The notes under the pieces are model-generated. The model saw only the letters and a program-made list of their open reading frames with translations, did no database searches and was not told where the DNA came from. DNA of 64,000 nucleotides from an uncultured Clostridium sp. (GTDB lineage: Bacteria; Bacillota; Clostridia; TANB77; CAG-465): contig CAOKPF010000001.1 of NCBI GenBank assembly GCA_948470565.1, positions 5,866 through 69,865 of the forward strand, written 5' to 3'. This document shows positions 2,968 to 25,647 of this stretch, in pieces. Position numbers and translations under genes: made by a program. The first letter of the stretch is position 1. Each line of letters starts with the position of its first letter.

Positions 2968-2981
2968 TAAGGAGGAATATT

Positions 2982-3518: not shown

Positions 3519-3527
3519 TAATATATT

Positions 3528-3953
3528 ATGGAGGTCGTTATGGATAATGAGAGTTTACTAAAAATTGCAATAAATGCAAGAAAAAATGCTTTAGCAGAAG
3601 TATCGCAATATACAGTAGGTGCAGCACTTCTTGCAAGTTCAGGAACAGTATATATTGGGGCTAATGTAGAAGAGTACAGTATACTAGGTTTATCTAATTG
3701 TGCAGAAAGAGTTGCAATACAAAATGCAATTTCACATGGTGAAAGAAATTTTGTAAAAATTGCAATAGTTGGTGGTAAAAAAGCTTCTGATAAGTTAGAT
3801 GAAATAGCTCCATGTGGAGTATGTTTGCAATATATACTTGATATGTGTAAAAATATTGATATAATTACAATAAAATCAGGAGAAATTGTATCAAATAATA
3901 TTGAAGATTATTTAAAAGTCCCATATGAATTAAATAGTATAGATAATAAATGA
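3528..3953 (+). CDS. cdd: cytidine deaminase
   Basis: CAERVAI...PCGVCLQ zinc-binding motifs of the cytidine deaminase family. Conserved position after ybeY-dgkA. Confidence 0.8.
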   Translation: MEVVMDNESLLKIAINARKNALAEVSQYTVGAALLASSGTVYIGANVEEYSILGLSNCAERVAIQNAISHGERNFVKIAIVGGKKASDKLDEIAPCGVCLQYILDMCKNIDIITIKSGEIVSNNIEDYLKVPYELNSIDNK

Positions 3954-3995
3954 ATAAAAAAACAATTAAGTGCATAACAATTATTAGGTGATAAT

Positions 3996-4706
3996 ATGAC
4001 AAAAAAGTATGCCTTAGTTGTTTTTTTATTCTTATTTCTTATAATTTCGACATATTATATTTCAAGTGGAGTAGATGGAACTGTTTTTGAAGTAAGGGCA
4101 GTAAATTCAAGTTGTAATTATAAAGTTAAAGAAATAAAAGAAGAGGGAAAAAACTATGTTATAGGAGGATATATACCTGATACAGAGTACGAGGTTTTAA
4201 ATAAAAAGGTAAATAATATAACTATTGACTATATAAATGACTTTAAGGAAAATATAGAGGGATTAACACCACTTAGTGAAGATGCTAAATTTGAATTGCA
4301 ATTTACATTTAATTCTTATGAAATGGAAAATTACATATCATTTGAAATAGAAATATATTCATATACTGGTGGAGCCCATCCAAATACTCTTATTGAAACT
4401 GTTGTATATAATAAAAAAGAAAATAATTTTGTAACTATTGAAGATTTAGAAAAACTAGATAATAATATATTGAATAAATTATCTGAATATTCATATAATA
4501 AGCTTAAACAAAACAAAATACTAATTGAAGTAAATGATGAAGGAATGCTAAAAGATGGTTTAAAGCCAGACGACGAAAATTTTGATAAGTTCGTTTTTTC
4601 AGATGAGGGACTAATAGTATTTTTTGAAAGGTATAGTATTGCACCATATTTTGCAGGAGATTTTAGTATATTAGTTCCATACGATGTTATAAATCTTAAT
4701 ATATAA
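3996..4706 (+). CDS. secreted DUF3298/DUF4163-like (RsiV-like fold) protein
   Basis: N-terminal signal/TM segment. YSYTGGAHPNT motif resembles the GGAH motif of DUF3298. Confidence 0.4.
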   Translation: MTKKYALVVFLFLFLIISTYYISSGVDGTVFEVRAVNSSCNYKVKEIKEEGKNYVIGGYIPDTEYEVLNKKVNNITIDYINDFKENIEGLTPLSEDAKFELQFTFNSYEMENYISFEIEIYSYTGGAHPNTLIETVVYNKKENNFVTIEDLEKLDNNILNKLSEYSYNKLKQNKILIEVNDEGMLKDGLKPDDENFDKFVFSDEGLIVFFERYSIAPYFAGDFSILVPYDVINLNI

Positions 4707-4717
4707 ATATTTATTAA

Positions 4718-4758
4718 AACAGTAAACATATATATTTATAAGTTTACTGTCTATTTAA
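4718..4758 (+). terminator. rho-independent terminator
   Basis: Hairpin aacagtaaac...gtttactgt followed by a T-rich tract. Confidence 0.5.
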
Positions 4759-4823
4759 TAAAAAATATATAATTGTAATTGAAAAAGTATTTAGTATTTG
4801 GTATAATAATAAACATATGAGGG

Positions 4824-7676
4824 ATGGATATGAAAATAAATAGAAATAAAGATTTTGATTCAACGCTTAATCTTCCAAAAGAAACTATATCTATAATAAG
4901 TGATTTAATAAAGAAAGAAAAATATTTTTTAAATAGCATACAAGATTATAAAAAATATAATAATGCTATCGAGAAGAATAAATTAAATGGCAAAAATTAT
5001 AATTTAGCAAGTATTCCTTTTGAAATAAATGATAAAAGTACTCCAACCCAATTAATTAACTCAATTTACAAAGATATATATATAAGACATCAGATAATGA
5101 TGGGTAACATTATAACTCATCATATAAGTTTTATTGAAAAAGGTAGTACTAATAATGAAAAGGTCAATGGTTTAAAATTAAAAGAGCAAGTAAAATATAA
5201 AAATATAAAAGAAGATGAATTAAAAGATACTACTAAAAATATTATACATGAAATAAAAAAAATGGGGGTAGTTAGCAACTATAATAATAATATAGAAAGT
5301 AGTTTTGATGAAAATACTGAAGAAAGAGTAGTTGAAAATTTTTTTAAATCATATAAAAATGGTAATATATACAAGCAGATAAGACCTGTTCATTGGTGTA
5401 CTAAATGTAAAAGTGAAATTTCACAAAGTGATGTTATAATACAAAAGGCTAGAAAAAATAATGTATATATAAAATATCGAATTAAAAATTGTGGAGAGAT
5501 TTATGAGGCAATAAATCCAAATGAAGAGATGTATTTTATTGTTGCAACAATAAGACCTTGGGTTCTTGAATCTAGTGATAGTATAGTTGCATGTAAGAAT
5601 ATGGAATATAGTATAGTAAATGTAACAGAAAATAACAAGAGTATTTACTATATTATAGCTTCTGAATGTGTAGATACTGTAATGGAAAATGCATTCTTTC
5701 TTAGATATAATATTATAAAAAAAATAGATGCAAGTAAGCTACAAAATATTATATGTTATAATCCATTAGATGAAAATAGAGAAGTAAAATTAATATATTC
5801 AACTCGTGAAAAAATAATGATAAATGATAATGATTTTACAGGGATAAATGTTGTTTCTAATACACATACATATATTGATTATTTAATAGAATTAGAAAAT
5901 AATATTGATAATTTAAAATCAATTATAGATGGTGAAGGAAATGTATATCCAAGTACTATAAAATTTAATGGTAAATTTTATAAAGATGTACAAAAAGATG
6001 TAGTAGATTACTTGAAAGAAAAGGGACTAATTTTATCTGTAATGCCAATAACTACATCTATAAATAAATGTAGTACATGCAAAACTGAACTTGTATATAA
6101 AATTGCTAATGAATGGTATATAAAAAGAGATAATGAGGTAAAAGATGAATTAAAAAATGCAATTTCTAATATAAAAAATGTGCTGAAAATACAGGATAAT
6201 AGTTTAAAAAATAATGTATTTGATATGCTTGATAAAATAAGTTTGAAAGATGAACTAAAAATTTCAGTTAATAAAAAAATTGGTATACCAATTCCTATGT
6301 TTTTCTGCGCTGATTGTGGTAAATATTTAAGTGGTGATAAATATTTTGAAATAATAAGGGATTGTATTGGGAAAAATGGTATATCTTCATTGTACAATAT
6401 GACACCTGATCAAATTTTAGGTAAAGAAATAGTATGTGAGTGCGGTAGTAATTTTTTCTTTAAAGATGATGGGGTATTTAATAATACATTTATATTATCA
6501 TCAATGCAATTTTTAAGTAAGAGTGAACAACAAAAAAGTGATGCAAATATATGTATAGCAAGTTCAAAGGAATTTTTAAAGCAAGTTTATAGTTTAAGTT
6601 ATAATAAAACAGGAGTAGAAAATTTAAGTAAATTAGATTTAATTTTAGTACATTCTGGAATTAATGAGAATATAAAAATTGTAACAATACCAATATTTTT
6701 TGATAAGTACGATGAAAATTCGTTAAGTGATTTAATTACACAAAATATAGGAATAAATGATGTAGTAAAAAAATATAGTACAGATGTATTAAGATTATGG
6801 GCAATGTCTGTTTTTAATGAAAATAATGTAAAATTAGAGGAACAAGATATTGTAAAAATAAATTCAGATTATTTAAATATAAGAAGATGTTTAAAGTATA
6901 TTTTATCAAATTTATATGATTTTATACCAGTAAGAAATTACATAGAAATAAATGATAGAACTGATTTAGATAAGTATATATATACAAAATTATATGATTT
7001 GAATGTTAATATAGATTTATGGTATGAAGATGGAATGTATAATAAAGTATATAAAGAAGTTTTTAATTTTTGTAAAAATTTCTTAACACGAGACTATTTT
7101 TCAACTTTAAAATATAGGTTATATATCTTAAGTGAAGATGATAAGATAAGAAGAAGTACACAGTCAACTTTACATGATATTTTAAATGCTTTGGTATTAT
7201 GGTTATCGCCAGTAATTCCATTTACCATAGAGGAGATATGGCCTTTCGTATGGAATAAAAATAATGATGAACAAATAAATGTACTTATGTATAGAAATGA
7301 ATTAAAAGAATACGATTTTAGAGATGTAATAGATAAATGGGATAAAATATTTGATTTTAAAAGAAAAATTACAAGGTATATAGAAAATGCCAAAAAAGAT
7401 AAAGTGATAGAAAATACATTTCAAGCTAATGTTTTGTTACAAACAACACCAAAGTCAGTTGAATTTATAAATGATAATAAAGATGAAATAGTGAGGGCTT
7501 TAAATATTTCTGAAATTGAGGCAGAAGAAAGTAATAAAAGATCTGTGAAAATTACAAAAACGACAGCACAGATGTGTCCTAGGTGTCGTAATTATACTGA
7601 TTCAATTGGTAAGTTATTGGAGTATAGATATTTGTGTGAAGATTGTGCTAAAATTTTAGTTAGCAAGAAAAGCTAG
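4824..7676 (+). CDS. isoleucyl-tRNA synthetase paralogue lacking HIGH and KMSKS motifs (predicted non-catalytic)
   Basis: Collinear similarity to IleRS along the full length: STLNLPKE N-terminus; KQIRPVHWCTKCKSEISQSDV versus the PVHWC.xC zinc-knuckle region; RPWVLE versus TTPWTLP; IGIPIP versus WGVPIP; TDVLRLWAMS versus GADILRLWVAS; ALVLWLSPVIPFTIEEIW; C-terminal CPRC...CEDC zinc finger. In place of HIGH the sequence reads KSTPTQL, and in place of KMSKS it reads DENSLSD. Confidence 0.75.
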   Translation: MDMKINRNKDFDSTLNLPKETISIISDLIKKEKYFLNSIQDYKKYNNAIEKNKLNGKNYNLASIPFEINDKSTPTQLINSIYKDIYIRHQIMMGNIITHHISFIEKGSTNNEKVNGLKLKEQVKYKNIKEDELKDTTKNIIHEIKKMGVVSNYNNNIESSFDENTEERVVENFFKSYKNGNIYKQIRPVHWCTKCKSEISQSDVIIQKARKNNVYIKYRIKNCGEIYEAINPNEEMYFIVATIRPWVLESSDSIVACKNMEYSIVNVTENNKSIYYIIASECVDTVMENAFFLRYNIIKKIDASKLQNIICYNPLDENREVKLIYSTREKIMINDNDFTGINVVSNTHTYIDYLIELENNIDNLKSIIDGEGNVYPSTIKFNGKFYKDVQKDVVDYLKEKGLILSVMPITTSINKCSTCKTELVYKIANEWYIKRDNEVKDELKNAISNIKNVLKIQDNSLKNNVFDMLDKISLKDELKISVNKKIGIPIPMFFCADCGKYLSGDKYFEIIRDCIGKNGISSLYNMTPDQILGKEIVCECGSNFFFKDDGVFNNTFILSSMQFLSKSEQQKSDANICIASSKEFLKQVYSLSYNKTGVENLSKLDLILVHSGINENIKIVTIPIFFDKYDENSLSDLITQNIGINDVVKKYSTDVLRLWAMSVFNENNVKLEEQDIVKINSDYLNIRRCLKYILSNLYDFIPVRNYIEINDRTDLDKYIYTKLYDLNVNIDLWYEDGMYNKVYKEVFNFCKNFLTRDYFSTLKYRLYILSEDDKIRRSTQSTLHDILNALVLWLSPVIPFTIEEIWPFVWNKNNDEQINVLMYRNELKEYDFRDVIDKWDKIFDFKRKITRYIENAKKDKVIENTFQANVLLQTTPKSVEFINDNKDEIVRALNISEIEAEESNKRSVKITKTTAQMCPRCRNYTDSIGKLLEYRYLCEDCAKILVSKKS

Positions 7677-7719
7677 AATATGTAATTTTGTATAAATTTT
7701 TTAAAAATTACATAATCTA

Positions 7720-7750
7720 CTTGACATAATATGTTGTTTTATATATAATA
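7720..7750 (+). promoter_or_regulatory. sigma-A-like promoter
   Basis: cTTGACAtaatatgttgttttataTATAAT, 17-nt spacer. Confidence 0.4.
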
Positions 7751-7801
7751 TTAAGTAGATAATAGTTGTAATACTTTAATAATTTAAAGGAGGAATTTTG
7801 T

Positions 7802-8199
7802 ATGATTATACAGGAAAAAGGTGGAAATATTTTAGAAAGTGGCGAAACTCGGATAGCTTTTGCAGTTAATATTGAAGGATTTAATGATGCAGGATTTGCC
7901 GGAACTGTTCAAGTAAGTATTGGCCAGAACTTGCAAACTATGGAAAATGTGAACTAGGTACAGTTTTGACTAAGTCTGTTAAAGGAATAACATTTTATGC
8001 ATTAGTATGTCATTCTTTGAAAACTGGCTGGAATAGTCAAATTGAAACTATAAGGAAATGTTTTGACTCTATAGAAACAGATGAGCCTATTGCAAGTATA
8101 TCCATTGGTACAGGATTGATAGGAGTATTAAGTGGAGCTGATTTTAATTTGATTAGAAGGGGGATGGAGCTTTCTAAAAAGAAAATTATACTTTATTAA
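7802..8199 (+). pseudogene. macro-domain (ADP-ribose binding/hydrolase-like) gene disrupted by a stop/frameshift
   Basis: Two adjacent frames (7802-7951 and 7966-8199) together resemble a macro domain: AGFAGTV...GxxLT...FYALVCHS...ASISIGTGLIGVLSGADF, compare SVAFPAISTGVYGYP. There is a stop codon at 7952 and a frame change before 7966. Confidence 0.45.
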
Positions 8200-8540
8200 A
8201 ATAAAAATCACTTTATAGTTAAAATGGAAATAGTAAAAGATAAATCAATATATTACTATTTTCATTTTTTGTTATTAAAAATCATTTTCTCTTTGTTGTA
8301 TAAATAATATTAAATTTTATGTATAAAGATGTATAGTCTTATAATATATTATACTAGTATATATTAATTTTATATTTTTATCATCAGGAATTAAGAGTAA
8401 CAAAATAATGTTTAGAAAATAGATGGTGACTGGTGCAAAAATGTAAAAATAAAATTGAAAATAGCTTTTTCGAATAAAATATAGCAAAAAAAGTCCGAAA
8501 ATAGAGCAAAGCAACACAATTAATATTATGTTAATTTTTA

Positions 8541-8570
8541 CTTAAGCTATTGACACCAACCTAATATGTA
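8541..8570 (+). promoter_or_regulatory. strong consensus promoter in a long noncoding region
   Basis: TTGACAccaacctaatatgtaTAAATAT (perfect -35, 17-nt spacer). No ORF downstream. Confidence 0.4.
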
Positions 8571-9252
8571 TAAATATAGCATACATTAACGTCATCTATA
8601 AATCTTAATTGAACTGTGTGTTCGTTAAAGTTGGTTAGTTTTTTTGATACTCAATACGCCTTTAAATCCATGTTGGATAAGATGGTACTTCGGGCTGTGA
8701 GGGTAAGAACCTTATTGCAAAAAACTGACAATATACACTAAGAAGTAAGACTTAAAAATACCTAAACTTTTTATTGTTTTTTATTCATTTGTTATAATTT
8801 ATACCAAAAAGAGAAGATAAATTTTCCCCTTTATCTTCTCGACATTTCAATGAAACTATAATCTTTACAAATAGAAGAAAAGAAATATAAAGTAACTTAC
8901 TTCCTATTTGTTATTTACATTATACAACACTTATTTTATTTGTCAATATTAGTTTACAATAAAAATACTAACTTTTATTGTTTAACTATCGTTATATGTC
9001 TGCTTTGTATATTTATATGGCTCTTCTGGAAAGTACGTGATGTTTATCATAATTAAAATAACTTACTTAATATTATTATTTTTATACTCTTATTTCTATA
9101 TGTTTATTATCTAATAAGAATTAATTGTCATACATTTTTTGTAAGAGCCATTTATATTTTACTACTAACAACAGTACAAGCTAAGTATATTAATTTTAAA
9201 CTTTTATCATTAAATTTCTTGCAATTTTTAAGTTTATATTGTATAATTAACG

Positions 9253-9338
9253 TATCACCAAGCGATAGAAAGCTATGAACCTTGTCAGGTCTGGAAGGAA
9301 GCAGCAATAAGTAGTTATTTCTATGTGTTTGGTGTATT
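9253..9338 (+). ncRNA. ffs: signal recognition particle RNA (small 4.5S-type, domain IV)
   Basis: ccttgtcaggtctggaaggaagcagcaataag matches the SRP domain IV consensus (CAGGUCCGGAAGGAAGCAGC, GGAA tetraloop). 5' atcaccaagcgatagaaa pairs with 3' tttctatgtgtttggtgtat. Promoter TTGCAA-17-TATAAT at 9219-9247. Conserved position immediately upstream of dnaX. Confidence 0.7.
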
Positions 9339-9357
9339 ATTGTATAAGGGTGAGAAT

Positions 9358-10920
9358 ATGTCATATATATCATTGTATAGAAAATATAGACCTAGTACAT
9401 TTGATACAATAGTAGGTCAAGATAGTGTAACTAAGATTTTAAAAAATCAAATAAAATCAGATAAAATATCTCATGCGTATATATTTAGTGGTAGTAGAGG
9501 AACAGGAAAGACAAGTGCAGCCAAGGTATTTTCAAGAGCAATAAACTGTTTAAATCCTAGAGATGGAGAACCTTGTAATGAGTGTGAAGTATGTAAAAAT
9601 ATATTAGAGGGAAATACAACTGATGTAATTGAAATGGACGCAGCTTCTAACAATAGTGTCGAGAATATACGTCAAATAAGGCAAGAAGTAGTATACGCAA
9701 CTATTGATGTAAAATATAGAGTTTATATAATAGATGAAGCACACATGTTAACAACTAGCGCATTTAATGCACTTCTAAAAACACTTGAAGAACCACCAGA
9801 AAATGTCGTATTTATATTAGCAACAACAGAACAGCATAAGATACCTGTAACAATTCTTTCAAGATGTTTAAGATTTGAATTTAGAAGAATATCAGATGAT
9901 GCAATTATCAAAAGATTAAATTATGTACTAGAACAAGAAAATATAAAGTTTGAAGATGAAGCAATCTCATATATAGCTAAACTTGCTGACGGAGGACTAA
10001 GAGATGCATTAAGTATACTAGAAAGGTGTATTTCTGAATATTCAGATATTTTAAAGAAAAGTGATGTTGAAAGAATTGTTGGAGCTATAAATACGGACTT
10101 AGTAAATAATATTGCTGATAGTATAATCAATTTTGATGCAATTAAAGCTGTGGAATATGTTGATAATGTTATTCAAAGTGGTAAGGATTTAAGACAATTA
10201 GTTTCAGAAGTTACAGAAGAATTTTTAAATAGATTACTTAAAAATAATGATAAGAAAGATGATAATAAAAGAATAATTTCAATAATTGATAGATTATCAA
10301 AATTAGATAATGACTTAAGATTATCTACAAATCCTGAAATTGTTGTAAAAGCCTGTTTTGTTGAATTATGTAATAATGTTACTAGCATAATTTCAAATAA
10401 TGGTAATAATAATGATAATAGCGAACTAATTTCATATATGCAAAATTTGAATAATAAAATAATTGAATTGGAAAATAAAATAAAATCTGGAGTAGTGGTA
10501 AAAAGTAATGCAACGAAAGTACCAGTAAAATCAAAAAGTGATGATGCTAATATTGATGTTTCACCAGAAAAAATTACATCACAAAAATCAAGTTTTTCAA
10601 AATTTGCAGAGTTTGATGGACTAAAGAATGCAATAGCAGAAAAAGGAAAATTAAAATTATATTCAGCACTTGCAAGTTCTGAGTTATATATAGCTGATAT
10701 TTTAAGTGTTATAATTACAAATAATAGTTTTGCATATAATATATTAAAATCAGATGACAATGCTCAAATTATAAGTTCAGTGTTATCTGAAAAATATGGT
10801 ATAAATAACAGATTATTATTTGAATTAAATGAAAAGAATGAAGATACAATGAGTAAACTAGAACAATTATTAGTTGAAAATAATATTGAATATACAAATA
10901 TTGATTGCAAAAAAGATTAA
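9358..10920 (+). CDS. dnaX: DNA polymerase III subunit gamma/tau
   Basis: MSYISLYRKYRP start, GSRGTGKTS Walker A, zinc module CxxC..CxxC, sensor motifs. The ORF-track start at 9325 overlaps the SRP RNA; the real start is probably 9358, with RBS aagggtgag. Confidence 0.9.
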   Translation: MSYISLYRKYRPSTFDTIVGQDSVTKILKNQIKSDKISHAYIFSGSRGTGKTSAAKVFSRAINCLNPRDGEPCNECEVCKNILEGNTTDVIEMDAASNNSVENIRQIRQEVVYATIDVKYRVYIIDEAHMLTTSAFNALLKTLEEPPENVVFILATTEQHKIPVTILSRCLRFEFRRISDDAIIKRLNYVLEQENIKFEDEAISYIAKLADGGLRDALSILERCISEYSDILKKSDVERIVGAINTDLVNNIADSIINFDAIKAVEYVDNVIQSGKDLRQLVSEVTEEFLNRLLKNNDKKDDNKRIISIIDRLSKLDNDLRLSTNPEIVVKACFVELCNNVTSIISNNGNNNDNSELISYMQNLNNKIIELENKIKSGVVVKSNATKVPVKSKSDDANIDVSPEKITSQKSSFSKFAEFDGLKNAIAEKGKLKLYSALASSELYIADILSVIITNNSFAYNILKSDDNAQIISSVLSEKYGINNRLLFELNEKNEDTMSKLEQLLVENNIEYTNIDCKKD

Positions 10921-15701: not shown

Positions 15702-15747
15702 ATTTTTTATGATTATATTCCTTTCGATTGTTTATTTTAAATAAAAA

Positions 15748-15790
15748 ATTGCTATTATTCAGTTAGATAATAGCAAATTTTACTTTTAAA
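15748..15790. terminator. bidirectional terminator
   Basis: aattgctattat..ataatagcaaatt hairpin flanked by T runs. Lies between convergent rlmB and the membrane-protein array. Confidence 0.55.
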
Positions 15791-15809
15791 ATATTAATTT
15801 ATATAAAAC

Positions 15810-16145
15810 TTAAGTAACAAAAAAATTCCAAATTATCATACATACCATACCCATTGGAAATGAAAATGTATAAGTAGCAATAGGCAGCCAATAAACGATA
15901 TGTTTATATTGAGTATTGATTTTTTTATTTAATGCAACACAAATTGTAATAAAGGATATGAAAATAAAATGGTATACCCCAGCTTCAATATATGGACCAA
16001 ATAAGTAAGTAAAAAAATACCCATTTTCAAAACATTCTTGTTTAGCTTTTTCCAAATTACACTGTCCAATGAAAAATTCAAATAAAAATAATGATACAAT
16101 GTATAATAATATTATTAAAAGTTTATTCTTTGTTTTTTTTGACAT
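15810..16145 (-). CDS. small 3-TM membrane protein, paralogue copy 4 (diverged C-terminus)
   Basis: About 95% nucleotide identity to the three upstream copies. GGGAGG RBS then ATG (MSKKTKNK...). The last ~8 residues differ (IWNFFVT). Confidence 0.7.
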   Translation of the reverse strand: MSKKTKNKLLIILLYIVSLFLFEFFIGQCNLEKAKQECFENGYFFTYLFGPYIEAGVYHFIFISFITICVALNKKINTQYKHIVYWLPIATYTFSFPMGMVCMIIWNFFVT

Positions 16146-16235
16146 AGTCATACCTCCCAATTTTTAATGAATTTTATTGTAATAGCAAATTTATTGACGA
16201 CATTAAAAATAAATCTTTAATATTTTTGTTTTTAT

Positions 16236-16583
16236 TTATCCAATAATATATGTTTCAAAAAAATTACCGATTATCATACATACCATACCCATTGGAAATG
16301 AAAATGTATAGGTAGCAATAGGTAGCCAATAAATGATATGTTTATATTGAGTATCGATTTTTTTATTTAATGCAACACAAATTGCAATAAAGGATATGAA
16401 AATAAAATGATATACCCCAGCTTCAATATATGGATAAAATACGTAAAGTACAAAATATCCATTTTCACCATATTCTTGTACCGCTTTTTCAAAATTACAT
16501 TCTCCAACGAAAAATTCAAATAAAAATAATGATATAATGTATAATAATATTATTAAAAGTTTATTCTTTGTTTTTTTTGACAT
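16236..16583 (-). CDS. small 3-TM membrane protein, paralogue copy 3
   Basis: Tandem 438-bp unit. Start at MSKK after GGGAGG (ORF track extends to 16598). Confidence 0.7.
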   Translation of the reverse strand: MSKKTKNKLLIILLYIISLFLFEFFVGECNFEKAVQEYGENGYFVLYVFYPYIEAGVYHFIFISFIAICVALNKKIDTQYKHIIYWLPIATYTFSFPMGMVCMIIGNFFETYIIG

Positions 16584-16673
16584 AGTCATACCTCCCAATT
16601 TTTAATGAATTTTATTGTAATAGCAAATTTATTGACGACATTAAAAATAAATCTTTAATATTTTTGTTTTTAT

Positions 16674-17021
16674 TTATCCAATAATATATGTTTCAAAAAA
16701 ATTACCGATTATCATACATACCATACCCATTGGAAATGAAAATGTATAGGTAGCAATAGGTAGCCAATAAATGATATGTTTATATTGAGTATCGATTTTT
16801 TTATTTAATGCAACACAAATTGCAATAAAGGATATGAAAATAAAATGGTATACCCCAGCTTGAAAATATGGATAAAATAAGTAAGTAAAAGAGTACCCAT
16901 TTTCAAAACATTCTTGTTCAGCTTTTTCAAAATTACATTCTCCAATGAAAAATTCAAATAAAAATAATGATACAATGTATAATAATATTATTAAAAGTTT
17001 ATTCTTTGTTTTTTTTGACAT
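16674..17021 (-). CDS. small 3-TM membrane protein, paralogue copy 2
   Basis: Tandem 438-bp unit, identical RBS/start context. Confidence 0.7.
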   Translation of the reverse strand: MSKKTKNKLLIILLYIVSLFLFEFFIGECNFEKAEQECFENGYSFTYLFYPYFQAGVYHFIFISFIAICVALNKKIDTQYKHIIYWLPIATYTFSFPMGMVCMIIGNFFETYIIG

Positions 17022-17111
17022 AGTCATACCTCCCAATTTTTAATGAATTTTATTGTAATAGCAAATTTATTGACGACATTAAAAATAAATCTTTAATATT
17101 TTTGTTTTTAT

Positions 17112-17459
17112 TTATCCAATAATATATGTTTCAAAAAAATTACCGATTATCATACATACCATACCCATTGGAAATGAAAATGTATAGGTAGCAATAGGTA
17201 GCCAATAAACGATATGTTTATATTGAGTATCAATTTTTTTATTTAATGCAACACAAATTGCAATAAAGGATATAAAAATAAAATGGTATACTCCTGCTCC
17301 AATATATGGACCAAATATGTAAGTAAAAAAATACCCATTTTCAAAACATTCTTGTTCAGCTTTTTTAAAATTACATTGTCCAATGAAAAATTCAAATAAA
17401 AATAATGATATAATGTATAAAATTATAATTAAAAGTTTATTTTTTGTTTTTTTTGACAT
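17112..17459 (-). CDS. small 3-TM membrane protein, paralogue copy 1
   Basis: First copy. Its start abuts the stop of the upstream 342-aa gene, suggesting translational coupling. Confidence 0.7.
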   Translation of the reverse strand: MSKKTKNKLLIIILYIISLFLFEFFIGQCNFKKAEQECFENGYFFTYIFGPYIGAGVYHFIFISFIAICVALNKKIDTQYKHIVYWLPIATYTFSFPMGMVCMIIGNFFETYIIG

Positions 17460-17461
17460 AG

Positions 17462-18490
17462 TCATACCTCCCAATTTTTGATATTGAACTTAATTGTAAT
17501 AGCAAATTTATTAACAACTTTACATGAAGTACCTATCATTGCTAAATTATTACCAAAAGACGCAAAAAAAACTTTAGCATAATCATCATTGTTTATATAT
17601 TTTTCTATTTCTTGGAACTCTGTAAAATCATAAATATCTGATAATTCTATATCCAAATTCCAATTTCCGTTATTTTGTTTGTTTCCACAAATGTTTATAT
17701 AGCTATTGTGTAGTGCTAGAAACAGATCACCACTTTCAAAAGCTAATGATTCATTATTTTTACCTGTATTAAACTGTTCCTTATTACCATATTTTTTAAT
17801 AATTTCATTTACTTTATTTTTAAAATAAATATTTTCCTTTATTTTTTCTACAACTTTTCCCTCTGTAATAATTATATCACTAGGCTTTTTTTGTAATGAA
17901 TGATTTAAAAATTCAGAGGATATATCATAATTACCTAGTTTTAGAACTAGAACTGCACATTTTAATATATAATGTTGTAACATTTGGGTCATATCAGATA
18001 AATAAGGTTTTTTATTATAATATTTACTAAATGCAAAGTTAACAATGTTAAATGAAATATTTTGAATATCATCATATTCACCATTCATTACTTTTTCGAA
18101 AATTTCTTTATATTCCTTATATTTTTTATTAATTTCTGATGATTGTTTAAGCGTAATAGCATTATTACTATATAAATTTTTGGAAGTAGTAGTACTATTT
18201 ATTATATCAATATCTTTTTGTAATAATTTCTTATATTTATCATAACAACTCAAAGGTACTTCATTTAATAAATTTAAGGTTAAGTATCTATTTGTTAATA
18301 TTTGTCTTTGAGCAGTAGGCAAATTTTTCTTATTACATAATTTTAATATTTTTTTATTTAGTAACTCCTCACCTTTTAGATTTTTTACATCAGAAATATT
18401 TATAGAACAACACATTTTCTTTAAGCAACCTAAACCAAATGTATATTTGGTATTGCTAAGTTCTCTACCACATAGAGTACATCTTTTCAT
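17462..18490 (-). CDS. hypothetical cytoplasmic protein with N-terminal CxxC...C..C zinc-ribbon
   Basis: 342 aa, MKRCTLCGRELS...GLGCLKKMCC. Extended -10 (tggtataat) and GAGGTGA RBS upstream. No other motif recognised. Confidence 0.6.
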   Translation of the reverse strand: MKRCTLCGRELSNTKYTFGLGCLKKMCCSINISDVKNLKGEELLNKKILKLCNKKNLPTAQRQILTNRYLTLNLLNEVPLSCYDKYKKLLQKDIDIINSTTTSKNLYSNNAITLKQSSEINKKYKEYKEIFEKVMNGEYDDIQNISFNIVNFAFSKYYNKKPYLSDMTQMLQHYILKCAVLVLKLGNYDISSEFLNHSLQKKPSDIIITEGKVVEKIKENIYFKNKVNEIIKKYGNKEQFNTGKNNESLAFESGDLFLALHNSYINICGNKQNNGNWNLDIELSDIYDFTEFQEIEKYINNDDYAKVFFASFGNNLAMIGTSCKVVNKFAITIKFNIKNWEV

Positions 18491-18919
18491 ATATTATCAC
18501 CTCGAACAAACTTTCATTGTACAAATTATACCATAATTTTCCAGAAAAGTATATAATTATCACAAAATTTACACGATAAAATTACAAGAGTTTAAATCAA
18601 GAAAGAGAAGATGGCATAATGAAAAATCTGTTAAATATGATAAAATATATTAGAGATATATGAAATGTTAGATAAATTAAATAAATTGTTGTTTATGTAG
18701 AATATTTTAGAAGATAAGAATAAAACATTTACGAGAAATTTTCAAAAAAATATAAAAATAATAATGAAATTTTGTTTTCTAGAGTTAAGAATATTTAAAG
18801 AAAATAAATAGGACTTTTAAAATGAACTAGATAATATAATTTATTATATATAAACATAAAGAAAATGCCGATATTGTGTTTACAATATCAACATTTCCTT
18901 ATATTTTACTTTTTAAATA

Positions 18920-19822
18920 TTAGTTATCTGCAAATTTAGGTAATTCATCTTTTGGGTATTCTGTGAATTCTCCAGTTAACATATTTTGAAGAACATATTT
19001 GTCTAAAACTGGTATTTCCCAAAAATTCTTATTTTTTAAAATAGCATATTTTCCAAAAGGTACTTCATCATCAGAAATGACTACGTTTAAAATCTTTATA
19101 CGTGAAAATGGGTACTTGTTACGAAGTTTTAAACTCATATCACATTTAAAGTTGCATTTTATAAATTTTGCAGTTTCACTATTTGTTTTATCAACTATAA
19201 CTACGCCATTACCATTTGATGTAGAATTGATTGTATATAAATATTTCCCATTAGAAGAAATTGGCTCTGAAACATAGTATGCTTCAAATAACTCTTCAAT
19301 AGTTGAACTTGGTATTATAGGTTGACCTGTTTCTAAGTTTATTTTATCACCTGTTTTTGTAGAAATTACAATTTCTGTTTTTTGGTCATCTTTTTTTATC
19401 CCAATAATGTTACCTGATGACATTACTGCATCTGTTATTGAAATTCCTATACATATAATAGCAATACAAATAAGAAATGCAACTTTCAATTCTTTGTTAT
19501 TATTCCAGCCATCAAGAATGGTTAATCCTTGAAATAATAATATGAATAGTATTTGTGCTATCGCCCCATAAAAATTATACCGGGTCGATAATGGTAAATA
19601 AATAAGTAATGATATAACAAAAGTAAGGCAAAAATAAATAACTTGCAGTATGATAGAGTATTTTAATTCATCACTTTTTTCTGAAAATCCTCTTTGTTCT
19701 ACATCTCCTATTAATGATTTTAATTTAAAACCTTTCCGTTTTATATTTTTCCAAAACCATGGTTGTATTAATATGGTTGAACAAATTCCCCAAAAGAGAG
19801 ATAAAAAAATAGGTATTAGCAT
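18920..19822 (-). CDS. hypothetical membrane-anchored protein with extracytoplasmic C-terminal domain
   Basis: N-terminal TM helices; the C-terminal ~170 aa are hydrophilic. Hairpin terminator downstream. Confidence 0.5.
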   Translation of the reverse strand: MLIPIFLSLFWGICSTILIQPWFWKNIKRKGFKLKSLIGDVEQRGFSEKSDELKYSIILQVIYFCLTFVISLLIYLPLSTRYNFYGAIAQILFILLFQGLTILDGWNNNKELKVAFLICIAIICIGISITDAVMSSGNIIGIKKDDQKTEIVISTKTGDKINLETGQPIIPSSTIEELFEAYYVSEPISSNGKYLYTINSTSNGNGVVIVDKTNSETAKFIKCNFKCDMSLKLRNKYPFSRIKILNVVISDDEVPFGKYAILKNKNFWEIPVLDKYVLQNMLTGEFTEYPKDELPKFADN

Positions 19823-20068: not shown

Positions 20069-21274
20069 TTGAAAAAGTTAATAAAATTTTTCTTTACATG
20101 TGCAATATGTGTAGGAATTACATATTATTTATATTTAAATCCAGAAATTACAGTTTTAATTTCAGATAGAATTACTGATACTGTTGAAATAATTGGAACA
20201 TATTTTGAAAAGGACTTAGAAGAATATACATCAGATTTTCAAATAAATGAACTCGAAATTGAAAAAGATGATTATTATTATGGATTTCTTACTAGTAACC
20301 AAAAAACAGTATATAATTACATAGCACATGCAGTAAAGGATTTAAAAAAAGAATTTAAAGTAAAGGGGTATGAACTTAGTACTACTCCTGAGGCTATGTC
20401 TGATGTATCTGAAGCAATGGATGCCTTTTTTAATGATCATCCAGAAGTATTTTATTTAGAAACATCATATAGAGTTGCAATTAATAGTTGGATTACAGGA
20501 CAAGTATTGGAAATTCAGCTCGCATATACTGTAACTAATGAAATAGAATTACAAAATCAGATTAGAATAATTAATGCTAAGATAAATGACATGATAAAGA
20601 ATGTTCCTGTAAATAATATATTTGAAACAGAACTTGAATTACATGATAGGTTGTGTAAAAGTGCTTCATATTTTAAATATACAGATATAGACGATATTCC
20701 TATGGAATGTCATACCATATATGGAACATTTGTAAAAGATACTGCAGTATGCGATGGTTTTTCGAAAGCAATGCAAATATTATTAGATAGGGTAGGAATT
20801 GAAAGTATAATTACTGTTGGAAATTTACAAGGTGAATCACATGCTTGGAATATGGTACATTTAGATGATGAATGGTATCATTTAGATGTGACTTCTGACA
20901 AATCGTTATATAGAAATGATGAATTAAGTAATTATGTTATTCACTCATATTTTAATGTAACAACTGAGAATATAAAAGCTACACATAGTATAAAATATGA
21001 AAGGAAAATCCCAAGGGCAGTTGAAACTAAATATAATTATTATGTGTATATGAATAAATATATATCAAATAATGATTATTTTACGAGTAAGATAAAAAGT
21101 ATATTAGATAATAATAAAGATACACAATTAGTAGAATTTAGTGCTGATAATATAAATAAAGTTGCAGATAAGATGACAACTGTACTTGCAGATAAAAAAT
21201 ATAATGAGTATGTATCTAGTAATAACGTATTTAAATATTATATTGTACTTAATTCGTATATAATGGTTAAATAA
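20069..21274 (+). CDS. transglutaminase-like cysteine protease domain protein
   Basis: N-terminal TM segment. CDGFS...HAWNMV...D catalytic triad arrangement of transglutaminase-like proteins. Confidence 0.65.
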   Translation: MKKLIKFFFTCAICVGITYYLYLNPEITVLISDRITDTVEIIGTYFEKDLEEYTSDFQINELEIEKDDYYYGFLTSNQKTVYNYIAHAVKDLKKEFKVKGYELSTTPEAMSDVSEAMDAFFNDHPEVFYLETSYRVAINSWITGQVLEIQLAYTVTNEIELQNQIRIINAKINDMIKNVPVNNIFETELELHDRLCKSASYFKYTDIDDIPMECHTIYGTFVKDTAVCDGFSKAMQILLDRVGIESIITVGNLQGESHAWNMVHLDDEWYHLDVTSDKSLYRNDELSNYVIHSYFNVTTENIKATHSIKYERKIPRAVETKYNYYVYMNKYISNNDYFTSKIKSILDNNKDTQLVEFSADNINKVADKMTTVLADKKYNEYVSSNNVFKYYIVLNSYIMVK

Positions 21275-21302: not shown

Positions 21303-23777
21303 ATGAAAATGGAGGATATAATTGACCTATTTAAAGATATATATAATGAGCATAAAAAAGTAATTATTGGAATGGTTATAGCAGCTTTAGTATTAGTCAT
21401 AGGTGTAAATGTTTTTAAAGCTGTATATAATCCAATAACAATTTCCTGGGGAGAAAATAGTGTAATAGCAACTAAGGAAAAAATTATAGTTTTAGATGCA
21501 ACAGCAACAGATAAATATGGTAAGGCTTATGACATAGAATGGGAAGTTAGTGATGGACAGATTAATACAAATTTTGGAAATGAAATAAAGTGGAGTTTGC
21601 CTGATAATCCAGGAGTATATACTGTTACAGTAAAATGCGAGGATAAAATAAAATCTAAAAATATAACAGTGTTAGATAATGAGTTATCCTTACAACTACA
21701 TGAAACACTAAAATATGATGAAAATAACGATGAAGATGCAGATGGTATTATTAATTCAAAAGAAGTAGAAAATAGTACAGCAATTAATTTAATAGATAGT
21801 GATGGAGATGGACTTTCTGATTATTACGAATTAAATGTTTCAAAAACCTCACCTACAATATCAGATTCAGATGAAGATGGTATAAATGATGGAAATGAAA
21901 TACTTTTACAACTTGATCCTTTAAGTAAGAATGAAGATACTAATTTAAAATATAATTTTTCCGATGAAAAAACAGGTACACAAATTGAAATTACAGGTAA
22001 AGAAAATATTGCAAGTACTACTGTTAATGAATATAAGTTAGATAATATTTCTAGTATTAATAAAAATATTAGTCCTGTATATCAAATCCATAGTGAGGGT
22101 GAAATTAGTGATGCGATTATTAAATTAAAGTACAATAAGGAAACTATTACTTCAGCTGGGATAAATGAAAGTAATTTAGGTATATACAGAGTTGATATGA
22201 AGGCTAATGAATTTGAAAAAATTGATTCAAACTTAGATACTCAAAATAGCATAATATCTTGTAATGTAAATGAACTTGGAATGTATTTTATAGGTGATAC
22301 AACTACAATTTCTAAATCAATTTCAACAGAGCTTATGTTTGTAATTGATAATTCAGGTTCTATGTATTCAAGTGAAGAGGTATCAGGTAGTGCAGAAAAT
22401 GATGTAGATTTTAAAAGAGTAGATTTATCAAATAAGATTATAGATAAATTAGAAGGACATTATAAATTTGGAGCAGGTAAATTTACATTTGAGTATACTA
22501 GTTTGAGTGGTATGACAGAAAATAAATCTCAGGTAAAAGAACAATTAAATTCTATAAAAAGTGTAGTAGAGAAGTTTACAGGTACATATATAGGTAATGC
22601 GATTAGTGAAGGTGTAAAGGCCTTTTCTAATCAAGATATTGCAAGAAAATATATGATATTACTTACTGATGGAAAGGATAGTACTGATGTACAAGGATAC
22701 GATAAAGATAAAATAACTAAAGCAATACAAGAAGCAAAAGATGCGAATGTGAAAATATTTACTATTGGATTAGGTCAGGAGATAGAGCAAAATACTTTGA
22801 AAAATATTTCTGAGCAAACTGGTGGGGAATATTATTATGCTACTAATGATGAAATTTTAGAAAGTATATTTGAATTAATATCTGCAAAAATAAATTACAA
22901 TTTAGTTGACAGTAATAGAGATAATTTAGATGATAGCATAGTATTAAATGATAGTAAGTTTATTACTAAAAGAGATGGTTTTCCATTTAATAATTTTGCA
23001 TCTACAAAAAATAATTATGGAGTAACCTATGGTATGACATTATTTGCAAAATTATATTACCAAGGTGATTTACCAAAAAGTTTAGATAGTATGACAATAA
23101 GGACAAATGCTAATAATGGAACTGTAAAAGCTGATGGATATAATTTGGGAAATAGTGTAATAGAAGATTCTCTTTCAAATTTAGAATTTGAAAATTTATA
23201 TTTCTTATCAAAAGAACCAAACGATTTTAGATATATGGTAGAAAATAATATATTATTAATTAATCCTACTTATTCTAATGAATATATTGAATATGGATTT
23301 AATACATATAATATTGACACAATTGTAGCGAATGCACCATTTAGAAAATATAATCAGTATTATTTAGATATGGATTCGGAAGCATTTTTAAATTCAGATT
23401 ATAATGAAAAAGAAATTATTAACGCTTTTTATAGGTTAGATATATTAAAGTATAGACAAGATGAGTATAATTTTAGTAGTATACCTGATGAGAGCTTTAA
23501 TAAATTAGTTGAAATGCTTAAAAATAATGAACCTGCATTACTAGTACTAAATGAAAATTACACAGTATGTGCTATAAAACTTTTAGCAGATAGTATTAAT
23601 CCAAATAAAATGTTAATAGAAGTATATGATAGTAATTATAGTAATAAAAATAAATTTATTGAAGTAACACGAACTAATCTTGTCAATGAGAAAAATAAAT
23701 ATCAGTATAAATTTAGTTATAATGGAAATGAGGTATATGTAAAAATTAGTATACCAAGTATAGAAACTAAGTTATAA
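21303..23777 (+). CDS. von Willebrand factor A domain protein with D-rich calcium-binding repeats
   Basis: N-terminal TM. DSDGDGLSDYYE / DSDEDGINDGNE thrombospondin-type-3-like repeats. vWA motifs: MFVIDNSGSM (MIDAS DxSxS), LLTDGKDST, TIGLG. Confidence 0.65.
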   Translation: MKMEDIIDLFKDIYNEHKKVIIGMVIAALVLVIGVNVFKAVYNPITISWGENSVIATKEKIIVLDATATDKYGKAYDIEWEVSDGQINTNFGNEIKWSLPDNPGVYTVTVKCEDKIKSKNITVLDNELSLQLHETLKYDENNDEDADGIINSKEVENSTAINLIDSDGDGLSDYYELNVSKTSPTISDSDEDGINDGNEILLQLDPLSKNEDTNLKYNFSDEKTGTQIEITGKENIASTTVNEYKLDNISSINKNISPVYQIHSEGEISDAIIKLKYNKETITSAGINESNLGIYRVDMKANEFEKIDSNLDTQNSIISCNVNELGMYFIGDTTTISKSISTELMFVIDNSGSMYSSEEVSGSAENDVDFKRVDLSNKIIDKLEGHYKFGAGKFTFEYTSLSGMTENKSQVKEQLNSIKSVVEKFTGTYIGNAISEGVKAFSNQDIARKYMILLTDGKDSTDVQGYDKDKITKAIQEAKDANVKIFTIGLGQEIEQNTLKNISEQTGGEYYYATNDEILESIFELISAKINYNLVDSNRDNLDDSIVLNDSKFITKRDGFPFNNFASTKNNYGVTYGMTLFAKLYYQGDLPKSLDSMTIRTNANNGTVKADGYNLGNSVIEDSLSNLEFENLYFLSKEPNDFRYMVENNILLINPTYSNEYIEYGFNTYNIDTIVANAPFRKYNQYYLDMDSEAFLNSDYNEKEIINAFYRLDILKYRQDEYNFSSIPDESFNKLVEMLKNNEPALLVLNENYTVCAIKLLADSINPNKMLIEVYDSNYSNKNKFIEVTRTNLVNEKNKYQYKFSYNGNEVYVKISIPSIETKL

Positions 23778-23869: not shown

Positions 23870-25159
23870 ATGGTAATGGGTAAAATTTATTTAGAAAAAG
23901 ATGTAGTAACTGCTGCAATAGAGAGGTTAGAGTACGTTTTTAACAATTTTGACAATGTATATTTTAGTTTTAGTGGTGGGAAAGATAGTTCAGTAATGTT
24001 GCAGCTTGCAAATCAAATAGCAAAAAGATTAAAGAAAAAATTTGATGTATTATTCATAGACTTAGAAGCTCAGTATAAACTTACTATAGAGCATGTAGAA
24101 GAAATGAAAAAACTTTCAAGAATAAGATATTTTTATCATATAGCTTTACCACTTGCACTTAGAAATTCGGTATCTGTATTACAACCAAAATGGACATGCT
24201 GGGATGAAAATTCTAAAGATTTATGGGTTCGTGATTTACCTAAGGATAGTATAAATATTTACAATTGTCCTATAAAAGATTTTAGAGTTGGAGAGGAGTT
24301 TGAAGAATTTGTATTGCAATTTGCAAAATGGTATCAAAATGAGCATGGTGGAACTTGTGCTTGTGGTGTTGCAATACGTGCAAATGAAAGCTTAAATAGA
24401 TTTAGGACTGTTGCAAAAAAGATAAAAAAGAGAATGTATAAAAATATTATATGGACTACTGAGATAAAATATAGGAATTATTTAGATGTATATAACTTTT
24501 ATCCAATTTATGATTTTACAACAGAAGATATTTGGGGAATTGTAAGTAAATTTGATTTTGAGTATAATAAAGTTTATGAATTACTGTATAAAAATGGAGT
24601 TCCAATAGCTCAGCAAAGACTTTGTCAACCATATGGAGATGATCAAAGAAATGGTTTAGATCAATTTAGAGCTTTAGAACCAGAAACATGGGAGAAAATA
24701 TTAAATAGAGTAAATGGTGTAAATTTTGGAAATATATATTGTAAGACTACAGCATTAGGAAATTTAAGAACCTCTAAACCAGATTTTATGACATGGGAGG
24801 AATATTCGGTATATTTATTAGAAAGTATTGGAATATATAATAAAGAATTGATGATACATTATTACCATAAGATTAAAAAATTTATGAATTGGTATGAAAA
24901 AAAAGAAGGTATTACAGTAAAGGATATTCCTCAAGAAGCGGATATTAAACTTGAAGGTAGAAAAAAGGTTATAAGTTGGCGTAGAATTGCTAGAAGTTTA
25001 GAAAAAAATGATTTTTATATGAGAAGGCTTTGTTTTTCTCAGACTAAAGGTGATGAGGAAAAACTAAGAAAATTTATGAAAAAATATCAAAATTTCCTTA
25101 CTTCTGAAACTGATACAGATGAGGATTTAATACAAATTGCTATTGAGGAGGGATATTAA
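23870..25159 (+). CDS. PAPS-reductase-like PP-loop protein (IbrA-like)
   Basis: SFSGGKDSSVML PP-loop. Roughly 430 aa with a long C-terminal extension as in the IbrA/DUF3440 family. Paired with a ParB-like gene. Confidence 0.6.
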   Translation: MVMGKIYLEKDVVTAAIERLEYVFNNFDNVYFSFSGGKDSSVMLQLANQIAKRLKKKFDVLFIDLEAQYKLTIEHVEEMKKLSRIRYFYHIALPLALRNSVSVLQPKWTCWDENSKDLWVRDLPKDSINIYNCPIKDFRVGEEFEEFVLQFAKWYQNEHGGTCACGVAIRANESLNRFRTVAKKIKKRMYKNIIWTTEIKYRNYLDVYNFYPIYDFTTEDIWGIVSKFDFEYNKVYELLYKNGVPIAQQRLCQPYGDDQRNGLDQFRALEPETWEKILNRVNGVNFGNIYCKTTALGNLRTSKPDFMTWEEYSVYLLESIGIYNKELMIHYYHKIKKFMNWYEKKEGITVKDIPQEADIKLEGRKKVISWRRIARSLEKNDFYMRRLCFSQTKGDEEKLRKFMKKYQNFLTSETDTDEDLIQIAIEEGY

Positions 25160-25647
25160 TGAAAGATATAGAATTTCCAGTATTAGATGTAAAAATGGTC
25201 GATATTGACAAAGTAATTTCAAATGATTATAACCCAAATAGAGTTGCAACTCCTGAATTAGTACTATTAAGAAAATCAATTGAAGCAGATGGCTATACTC
25301 AGCCTATAGTTACATATTATGATAAGAAAAATGATAAATATATAGTAGTAGATGGGTTTCATAGATATAAGTGTGCCAAAGAGTATTTCTTTTTAAAGGA
25401 GATACCAGTTGTTACTATAAATAAAGATTTAAAGAATAGAATGGCGTCAACTATAAGGCATAATAGGGCACGTGGAACACATCAGATTGGAGATATGTCA
25501 AAGATAGTAGTAACATTATTAAAAAAAGGTTGGTCAGATGAAAAAATATGCATAGAACTTGGAATGGAATTAGATGAAGTTATAAGATTAAAACAAGTAA
25601 GTGGGTTAAAAGAAGCTTTTGCTGATCACAAATTTAGTAGAACATAG
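25159..25647 (+). CDS. ParB-like nuclease domain protein (IbrB-like)
   Basis: ParB/Srx fold motifs: DYNPNR...GYTQPI...DGFHRY. Start overlaps the stop of the upstream gene (ATGA). Confidence 0.6.
   Translation: MKDIEFPVLDVKMVDIDKVISNDYNPNRVATPELVLLRKSIEADGYTQPIVTYYDKKNDKYIVVDGFHRYKCAKEYFFLKEIPVVTINKDLKNRMASTIRHNRARGTHQIGDMSKIVVTLLKKGWSDEKICIELGMELDEVIRLKQVSGLKEAFADHKFSRT

Follow-up and report, generated by a model that had tools for sequence, protein, structure and literature searches.

The stretch of DNA analysed here (the window) comprises 64,000 nucleotides (nt) of an uncultured Clostridium sp. (GenBank assembly GCA_948470565.1, contig CAOKPF010000001.1) and carries on its minus strand, between positions 15810 and 18490, a gene for a 342-amino-acid protein followed by four small genes in tandem, which together probably form a toxin-immunity locus. 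The list of open reading frames (ORFs) agrees with an earlier note, made from the sequence alone, in which these five genes were described: the large gene, a toxin candidate, occupies positions 17462-18490, and the small genes, putative immunity genes, encode 115, 115, 115 and 111 amino acids. The product of copy 1 (17112-17459), whose start overlaps the end of the toxin-candidate gene, has three predicted membrane helices. Copies 2 (16674-17021), 3 (16236-16583) and 4 (15810-16145) follow on the same strand; copy 3 has the most divergent loop (C38Y and F39G) and copy 4 a different C-terminal tail. All small-gene products start with MSKKTKNK, their ATG being located seven bases 3' of a GGAGG site. 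Upstream of the toxin-candidate gene, a candidate extended -10 promoter element, TGGTATAAT (18525-18533, minus strand), was read from the sequence about 35 nt before the ATG at 18490, and a GAGGTGA ribosome-binding site between the two.

Tandem Repeats Finder reported one array (15818-17512) with a period of 438, 3.9 copies, 94% matches and no indels. The 438-bp tandem units of the earlier note were thereby recovered, except for the last one, which has only 412 nt and a differing tail that cannot be aligned to the other units. The unit boundaries are marked by a 13-mer, AAATTTGCTATTA, with exactly five matches in the window versus 0.04 expected by chance. The first copy (17497-17509) lies within the 3' end of the 342-amino-acid gene, the others are found at 17056-17068, 16618-16630, 16180-16192 and 15768-15780 (all minus strand), with spacings of 441, 438, 438 and 412 nt, and the last one, beyond copy 4, forms the 5' arm of a hairpin with a U-run behind it. 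As the note had claimed, each spacer combines a copy of the toxin-gene 3' end, 54 nt in length, with a GGGAGG site. These remnants of the last 18 codons (17024-17077 before copy 2, 16586-16639 and 16148-16201 before copies 3 and 4, all minus strand) are 100% identical to one another and are distinguished from the real toxin-gene end by five synonymous changes and the deletion of one codon, the reading frame being preserved (VVNKFAITIKF-IKNWEV, then stop). A one-step duplication between two 13-mers was considered as the origin of the units and fits poorly, as the homology to the toxin 3' end starts at least 9 nt before the 13-mer and the unalignable tail of unit 4 is a further misfit. An assembly artefact was ruled out by the 18-42 differing sites found in each pair of copies over the aligned segments. 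A 41-nt imperfect direct repeat (76%; 15777-15817 and 18903-18943) brackets the whole module of toxin gene and array, each of its copies lying just 3' of a stop codon (that of copy 4 and that of an upstream gene for 300 amino acids); it could be an old insertion boundary or a chance similarity in AT-rich DNA.

The hairpin after copy 4 (15739-15776, minus strand; 10-bp stem, 8-nt loop and U-run) is a probable intrinsic terminator with a folding energy of -13.6 kcal/mol (z = -4.0), and the inter-unit spacers are without stable RNA structure (z = +0.44). Because of this terminator and the lack of a stable fold in the spacers, the toxin-candidate gene and the four small genes probably constitute one transcript. 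Another terminator-like hairpin (18859-18900) closes the upstream 300-amino-acid gene, and the toxin-candidate gene consequently needs a promoter of its own. Regarding the internal promoter that the earlier note had suggested for each unit, a TCGTCA-18-TAAAAT match is present in each spacer, and a perfect TATAAT occurs in the remnant of two human-gut metagenome loci (L059/L061) described below. As the region shows no excess of promoter-like matches over chance (39 versus 36.7 expected, in DNA with 22% G+C), the proposal stays a lead. The recurrence of one breakpoint fits it: the remnants in the window units begin at V325 of the toxin gene or up to two codons before it, and an independent deletion in a different species (L059) begins exactly at codon 325. 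Since two independent events broke within the same few codons of a 342-codon gene, it is suggested, again as a lead, that the last approximately 54 nt of the toxin gene are needed 5' of an immunity gene, for example as an internal promoter.

The differences among the four small genes are, as stated in the note, packed into one loop: 14 of the 20 variable amino-acid positions fall in residues 25-54 (Fisher p = 1.2e-5). The corresponding hypervariable segments are located at 17298-17387 in copy 1 and at 16860-16949, 16422-16511 and 15984-16073 in copies 2-4 (all minus strand), as determined from per-segment nucleotide differences and the ratio of non-synonymous to synonymous substitution rates (dN/dS). 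The codon-based comparison called for at the time yielded a pooled ratio of non-synonymous to synonymous differences (pN/pS) of 0.99 in residues 25-54 (pairs 0.73-1.9) versus 0.17 elsewhere, so that the substitutions are not uniform along the gene. Outside the loop there is strong purifying selection, with all four frames intact, and the copies are mutually 89-91% identical in protein. Along the unit, units 2 and 3 differ at 0/50, 1/72, 16/90, 1/153 and 0/76 sites; 16 of the 18 nucleotide differences, synonymous ones included, thus lie inside the 90-nt loop segment, which is 18% different, whereas the other 351 nt differ at two sites, and the synonymous divergence (dS) is 0.26 in the loop versus 0.02 elsewhere. 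Unit 1 is set apart from the others in its 5' part (6/50 and 4-5/72), the tail being identical. Point mutation and selection alone cannot yield such a mosaic; exchange between copies or alleles is needed, by which the loop was either imported or shielded from homogenisation. A diversity-generating retroelement was rejected as the source of the variation: NCBIfam, PADLOC and PHROGs revealed no reverse transcriptase among the neighbouring ORFs, and there was no template repeat, the repeats of the variable segment being solely the four gene copies.

These data bear on an alternative in which the locus is likewise a toxin-immunity locus, but with an immunity gene amplified for gene dosage only and loop differences that represent neutral drift without a change in specificity. 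Tandem amplification under dosage selection is common in bacteria, a pN/pS of about 1 in the loop is what relaxed constraint would leave, and across species, too, conservation of the small protein is lowest in the loop (mean identity 0.30 versus 0.46-0.48). Amplifications of this kind are usually young and identical, however, whereas the synonymous divergence between the present copies reaches 0.08-0.25 outside the loop. The purifying selection on the remainder of the genes and the pattern of units 2 and 3, which needs either the import of a foreign loop or selection against homogenising, likewise disagree with pure dosage, which is accordingly regarded as unlikely.

A structure model of the small protein, computed from the four near-identical sequences, had a predicted local distance difference test score (pLDDT) of 54 and was used for rough helix limits only; in this low-confidence model, the hypervariable segment runs from the last part of helix 1 through a short loop helix into helix 2, of which it takes up the outer half. 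An outside location is predicted for residues 28 to about 54 by the positive-inside rule, as both the N-terminus (KKTKNK) and the 73-82 loop carry positive charges. The conserved Cys residues that the earlier note had placed in this loop are present in some of the copies, but copy 3 is without the second one (C38) and many orthologues are without the pair, which is not a feature of the small-protein family. Searching by sequence with the small protein recovered nothing beyond its own 90% cluster, and orthologues were gathered by synteny instead. Among the species compared, loop identity tracks the C-terminal half of the toxin candidate (Spearman 0.70) better than its N-terminal half (0.56), which is weak evidence, the species pairs not being independent.

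Regarding the 342-amino-acid protein, neither a signal peptide nor a transmembrane segment was detected (maximum 19-residue hydropathy 1.05). Its family comprises 145 clusters, all of them unannotated and without Pfam domains. The 39 loci found in a genome scan all belong to uncultured gut bacteria, the hosts being mouse, rabbit, chicken and Hadza humans; nearly all are labelled Clostridia, Clostridium or Clostridiaceae, and single records are labelled Lachnospiraceae or Bacilli. Conservation spans the full length of the protein, with C4, C7, C22, C27, H197, D255, D285, Y287 and D288 among the top positions; in 40 homologues the four Cys residues are conserved to at least 90%, Y287 is likewise conserved to at least 90%, and D285 and D288 are invariant. 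Scans of the 342-amino-acid protein and the small proteins against Pfam, NCBIfam, PADLOC and PHROGs yielded nothing significant, and neither the whole-family profile nor that of the C-terminal domain found more than chance matches among PDB sequences. The AlphaFold2 model, a check proposed in the earlier note, has a pLDDT of 87.9 and a predicted template modelling score of 0.80. Its N-terminal part (codons 1-165; 17996-18490, minus strand), in which the four Cys residues are followed by helices, was modelled as helical with a pLDDT of about 90 and possibly serves in trafficking or receptor binding; no family match was obtained for these 165 residues, and none of the trafficking families (LXG, WXG, PAAR or others) was detected.

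When 1.84 billion representatives were searched with a profile of the family, 791 proteins matched. The C-terminal half (profile positions about 160-340) was encountered at the extreme C-terminus of proteins of 541-2575 amino acids that are RHS-repeat proteins by Pfam, where it begins right after the DPxG motif at the end of the core. The scaffolds bearing the domain are RHS repeats (six proteins), PG_binding_1 (four proteins) and the four-Cys N-terminal part, so that one C-terminal domain is found on different N-terminal scaffolds, as in polymorphic toxins; a recognisable N-terminal secretion or trafficking domain, which also belongs to such toxins, was not seen in the window protein. By the established logic of polymorphic toxins, the C-terminal tip domain of RHS proteins is the toxin domain (PMC3482391). 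Because the C-terminal approximately 175 residues of the 342-amino-acid protein (codons 166-342; 17465-17995, minus strand) correspond to a domain occupying this tip, they are a candidate toxin domain and the protein is a toxin candidate; the statement in the earlier note that no cognate toxin gene is visible is wrong.

Two side observations concern these modules. In P0227 (224 amino acids), the N-terminal 86 residues with the conserved Cys motif are fused to a hydrophobic C-terminal half, probably a multi-helix membrane region, in place of the toxin domain; the N-terminal module may thus combine with other C-termini. Locus L057 (885-4623) contains two adjoining proteins headed by PG_binding_1, the C-terminus being phospholipase-like in one and this toxin domain in the other, each followed by a small gene. 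The small protein that was translated (166 amino acids) begins with a hydrophobic anchor, the translated toxin homologue (370 amino acids) has no signal peptide, and the pair looks like a second polymorphic scaffold for the toxin domain.

The best structural matches of the toxin-candidate model in the PDB were a DUF3289 effector and the lipid II-degrading colicin M toxins, and the top five Foldseek matches all belong to the colicin M family. Comparison with colicin M relatives by hhalign yielded P = 0.0058 for the whole family; when a C-terminal alignment of greater diversity was used, P was 0.0025 in local and 0.0017 in global mode. The segments matched in global mode are collinear: LEHSLQ is placed with LAHYLWG (LxHSL matching LAHYL), H197 with ColM H135, and the final strand PY-I-V-F with EYQILL, and the D285-I-Y287-D288-F289 motif (17624-17638, minus strand) is in register with its counterpart D226-K-Y228-D229-F in colicin M, the sequence of which was verified against PDB entries. 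Thus, the protein for which the earlier note had seen no recognisable catalytic motif carries a D-x-Y-D, including the two invariant Asp residues, that aligns with the catalytic motif of colicin M. No match to the Colicin_M profile PF14859, which all true ColM relatives carry, was obtained at E <= 1 for the window protein or at E <= 10 for 16 diverse C-terminal domains, and neither the window protein nor these 16 domains matched the DUF3289 Pfam profile. Because a Pfam, NCBIfam or PDB sequence match and the His-Arg pair of colicin M (see below) are lacking, the protein was not filed in either family. The lines of evidence, each weak alone but agreeing, make it probable that the protein is distantly related to the colicin M / DUF3289 fold; the link between DUF3289 and colicin M was itself made by structure only, in 2024 (PMC11148199). 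Colicin M attacks lipid II only from outside the cytoplasm, and its overproduction inside the cell is harmless (PMC8469651); by analogy, lipid II may also be the target of the toxin candidate.

In 45 of 50 clustered loci, a gene for a membrane-anchored partner adjoins the toxin gene. The partner belongs to the same three-helix family, directly after the toxin gene and often overlapping it, in 25 loci; in 11 loci it is a protein of 199-267 amino acids with N-terminal membrane helices and an outward domain, and in the nine most distant loci a protein of 213-280 amino acids, the full-length forms of which have one N-terminal membrane helix. Behind the RHS and PG_binding_1 versions, other proteins of 139-172 amino acids with a single N-terminal hydrophobic anchor are encoded. 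That every partner type is membrane-anchored fits a toxin acting at the outer face of the membrane. By gene layout, the adjacent putative immunity gene varies with the toxin, in three unrelated types.

Three human-gut metagenome contigs with flanks 97-98% identical show how the two genes are kept. Both the toxin gene and the small gene are present in L061; a clean 1.5-kb deletion has removed the toxin gene in L058, the small gene being kept; and in L059 only toxin codons 325-342 and the small gene are kept. Immune non-producers are the expected companions of bacteriocin producers, and strains without the toxin gene yet with the small gene are the strongest single evidence for the immunity reading. 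Orphan immunity genes with a toxin 3' remnant were found in window units 2-4, in L021 and in L059, and as a gene alone in L058. The paired membrane partners, the toxin-loss strains and the diversification localised in the loop support the proposal of the earlier note that the small proteins form an array of immunity proteins: they behave as an immunity-gene array that was amplified and diversified in one loop, as in polymorphic-toxin or bacteriocin loci.

As to the copy number in relatives, which the earlier note had wanted compared, no four-copy array of near-identical copies was found in the 49 other loci or the nine metagenome loci examined. A second, more divergent small gene stands in tandem behind a remnant encoding FKLENWEV and a stop in L021, and about 1 kb upstream in L020. 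The toxin homologues in L024 and L030 seem truncated (matched residues 1-290 and 110-342) and are followed by a second, divergent type of small immunity gene, as in L020 and L021. Regarding the window species itself, short-read contigs end at the toxin stop codon or within the first approximately 180 nt of the first small gene; one contig carries a copy-1-like gene and then an exact copy 4. The protein collection contributes two further small-protein variants, of which one combines copies 1 and 2 as a mosaic.

In other genomes the toxin gene and its partner often lie on mobile DNA: large serine recombinases are found beside toxin homologues in 14 loci and Bro-N genes in 8. An element of about 5.7 kb in L005-L008 (about 2745-9692), also seen in L025-L027, consists of a Bro-N gene, a type-B membrane partner, the toxin homologue and a large serine recombinase; in L005-L008 it sits between same-strand fragments, of 127 and 284 amino acids, of an EPSP_synthase-family (MurA-like) gene. 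It resembles an intervening element that can be excised, the toxin pair being its main cargo. In L015-L018 (about 7540-7600), a stretch resembling a tRNA 3' end lies on the reverse strand right after the immunity gene, and three contigs end there; L018 runs on into genes for small membrane proteins, perhaps of a conjugative element, none of which were scanned. The stretch may be the remnant of an integration site; a tRNA integration site proper was rejected, as ARAGORN calls no tRNA.

With the pair beside recombinase and Bro-N genes, and almost the sole cargo of a recombinase-bearing element that splits a MurA-like gene, it might be taken for an addiction module of the toxin-antitoxin kind that stabilises a mobile element, the toxin hitting its producer once element and immunity gene are lost. 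The window locus is situated in the core chromosome with no recombinase nearby, however; all types of immunity partner are membrane-anchored and outward-facing, and the domain is found on RHS proteins and with peptidoglycan-binding domains, vehicles of toxin delivery outside the cell. Strains without the toxin have moreover kept the immunity gene, as is expected for a defence against neighbours, and addiction is considered very unlikely.

The window represents the core chromosome of a spore-forming Clostridium with 26% G+C and encodes YqfD, YpeB, RNase Y, GatB, ProRS, FtsK, LepA and RlmB. Between the toxin locus and a PAPS-reductase/ParB pair, two plus-strand genes are found, one for a transglutaminase-related protein (20069-21274) and, after it, one for an 824-amino-acid VWA-domain protein with thrombospondin-type repeats (21303-23777). 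The PAPS-reductase-like protein (23870-25159, plus strand; phrog_2302, 2.6e-81) is directly followed by the ParB-like protein (25159-25647, plus strand; phrog_2159, 1.5e-63), and this pair is IbrA/IbrB-like, typical of mobile or defence-related DNA.

Such a defence-like pair in the accessory neighbourhood, and the notion that an array of membrane proteins varying in an outward loop might keep phages from entering, would suit a system of anti-phage abortive infection or exclusion, in which the 342-amino-acid protein senses and the small proteins are effectors or exclusion factors whose loop matches phage proteins. This is nevertheless highly improbable: the locus has no match to 5027 PADLOC defence models, no toxin relatives were found on 2.9 million viral contigs (for which reason an origin as phage cargo was also dropped), and the C-terminal domain is RHS toxin cargo. 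That the partner is swapped for unrelated membrane-anchored proteins while the large protein stays is better explained by the co-evolution of toxin and immunity.

The explanation considered probable is that related gut Clostridia compete by means of this locus, which would encode a toxin and a widened repertoire of immunity proteins against it. The toxin would be the 342-amino-acid protein, with the same toxin domain in its C-terminal approximately 175 residues that also rides RHS and peptidoglycan-binding proteins, and it would attack lipid II, a cell-wall precursor, on the outside of the cytoplasmic membrane, as known colicin M / DUF3289 members do. The three-helix small proteins would neutralise toxin arriving from outside, probably via the outward residues 25-54. 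The immunity gene may have been amplified to four tandem copies by unequal recombination between the 438-bp units, after which exchange between copies would have kept the flanks near-identical while the outward stretch stayed or became different. One transcript would thus yield four immunity variants, likely of benefit as protection against toxin variants of competing strains. Within this explanation, the layout of the locus, the presence of the domain in RHS toxins, the recurrent membrane-anchored partners, the immunity-only strains and the mosaic of copy differences are observed directly, and we infer lipid II as the target, the action of the toxin from outside the cell, the role of the loop as specificity determinant and broadened immunity as the advantage of having four copies.

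Several observations weigh against it. The toxin candidate has no signal peptide, LXG or WXG domain, a scan of ten large window ORFs gave no type VII secretion genes, and nothing holin- or lysis-like turned up in the family scans of the window. The His-Arg pair of the catalytic signature of colicin M, DxYD(x5)HR (PMC8469651), is absent, the positions five residues beyond D-x-Y-D being E-I in the window protein and not conserved. A pN/pS of about 1 in the loop also fits relaxed constraint and does not demonstrate positive selection, and short-read contigs from other samples of the same species break or collapse in the array.

A more far-reaching version can be offered only tentatively, as possible but rather doubtful. 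In it, the toxin would be a colicin M-like lipid II cleaver and represent the first such toxin family of Gram-positive gut anaerobes, leaderless and exported or delivered via its conserved N-terminal module; an outward loop of about 30 residues would decide immunity specificity and, through segmental gene conversion, move as a cassette from one tandem copy to another, so that the immunity repertoire could evolve.

Protein toxins used between Gram-positive gut anaerobes are poorly charted. The toxin domain family, with at least 791 representative clusters and no database model, would add a probable weapon against a cell-wall precursor to the arsenal of uncultured Clostridia in human, mouse, rabbit and chicken guts. 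A natural experiment is offered by the four-copy array, in which near-identical frameworks differ in one short outward segment, so that specificity residues are directly testable, and the strains that have retained immunity after loss of the toxin gene show the dynamics of producers and immune cheaters in real gut populations.

The colicin M family (ColM, PaeM, syringacin M and pectocins; PF14859) is among the best PDB fold matches of the toxin candidate. ColM is likewise without a signal peptide (PMC8469651), the immunity gene is adjacent as here (Cmi, PmiA/B/C and BmiA/B), and the colicin M domain is also carried as cargo on other scaffolds (RHS-ColM fusions P0146 and P0147). PmiA has a signal sequence and three membrane segments, its function depending on a periplasm-exposed motif, and BmiA, with as many membrane segments, is without a signal sequence (PMC8469651, PMC5821083); immunity proteins of the PmiA/BmiA type thus share three membrane helices with the small proteins of the window. 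In contrast to colicin M, the toxin candidate has four conserved Cys residues and helices instead of a TonB box and receptor domain, its host is a Gram-positive spore-former, while a 2018 review of the ColM family names no Firmicutes or Clostridia, and the small proteins are without sequence similarity to Cmi (PmiA was not directly compared). The DUF3289 type VI effectors (BtpeA of Bacteroides, PDB 9jdi, and an effector of Aeromonas jandaei) differ from the toxin candidate in N-terminal architecture, and type VI delivery is a Gram-negative system (PMC12135965, PMC11148199). Their immunity proteins are DUF943 or small three-helix proteins, e.g. a 95-amino-acid protein with three membrane helices for the Aeromonas effector (PMC12135965), and a three-helix partner is also found here.

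RHS/YD-repeat polymorphic toxins bear the same C-terminal domain at their tip, right after the core-end motif, and the repetition of a toxin 3' remnant plus immunity gene in the window array is the layout of RHS orphan modules. Poly-immunity clusters beside Rhs effectors have been described (bioRxiv 10.64898/2026.07.13.738213). Unlike in RHS systems, the toxin candidate of the window is without RHS repeats, the remnants comprise only 54 nt, and the copies are near-identical paralogues of the cognate gene, not a collection of unrelated immunity genes. TelC of Streptococcus intermedius, paired with TipC, is reportedly an interbacterial LXG toxin of a Gram-positive species and a lipid II phosphatase exported by type VII secretion (work of Whitney et al. 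in eLife, 2017), said to act on lipid II from outside and to be harmless in the cytoplasm, with its immunity protein at the outer face of the membrane; the toxin candidate differs in having neither an LXG domain nor type VII genes in the window scan, and TelC is not among its fold matches. Loci in which a toxin gene is followed by a membrane immunity gene, with orphan copies of the latter and strains that have immunity only, are well known, and the phrase "undescribed system" in the earlier note was overstated to that extent. What is new is a toxin domain family without Pfam, NCBIfam or PDB sequence match, a leaderless N-terminal part with four conserved Cys residues, the occurrence in gut Clostridia and the finely localised mosaic variation in a tandem immunity array.

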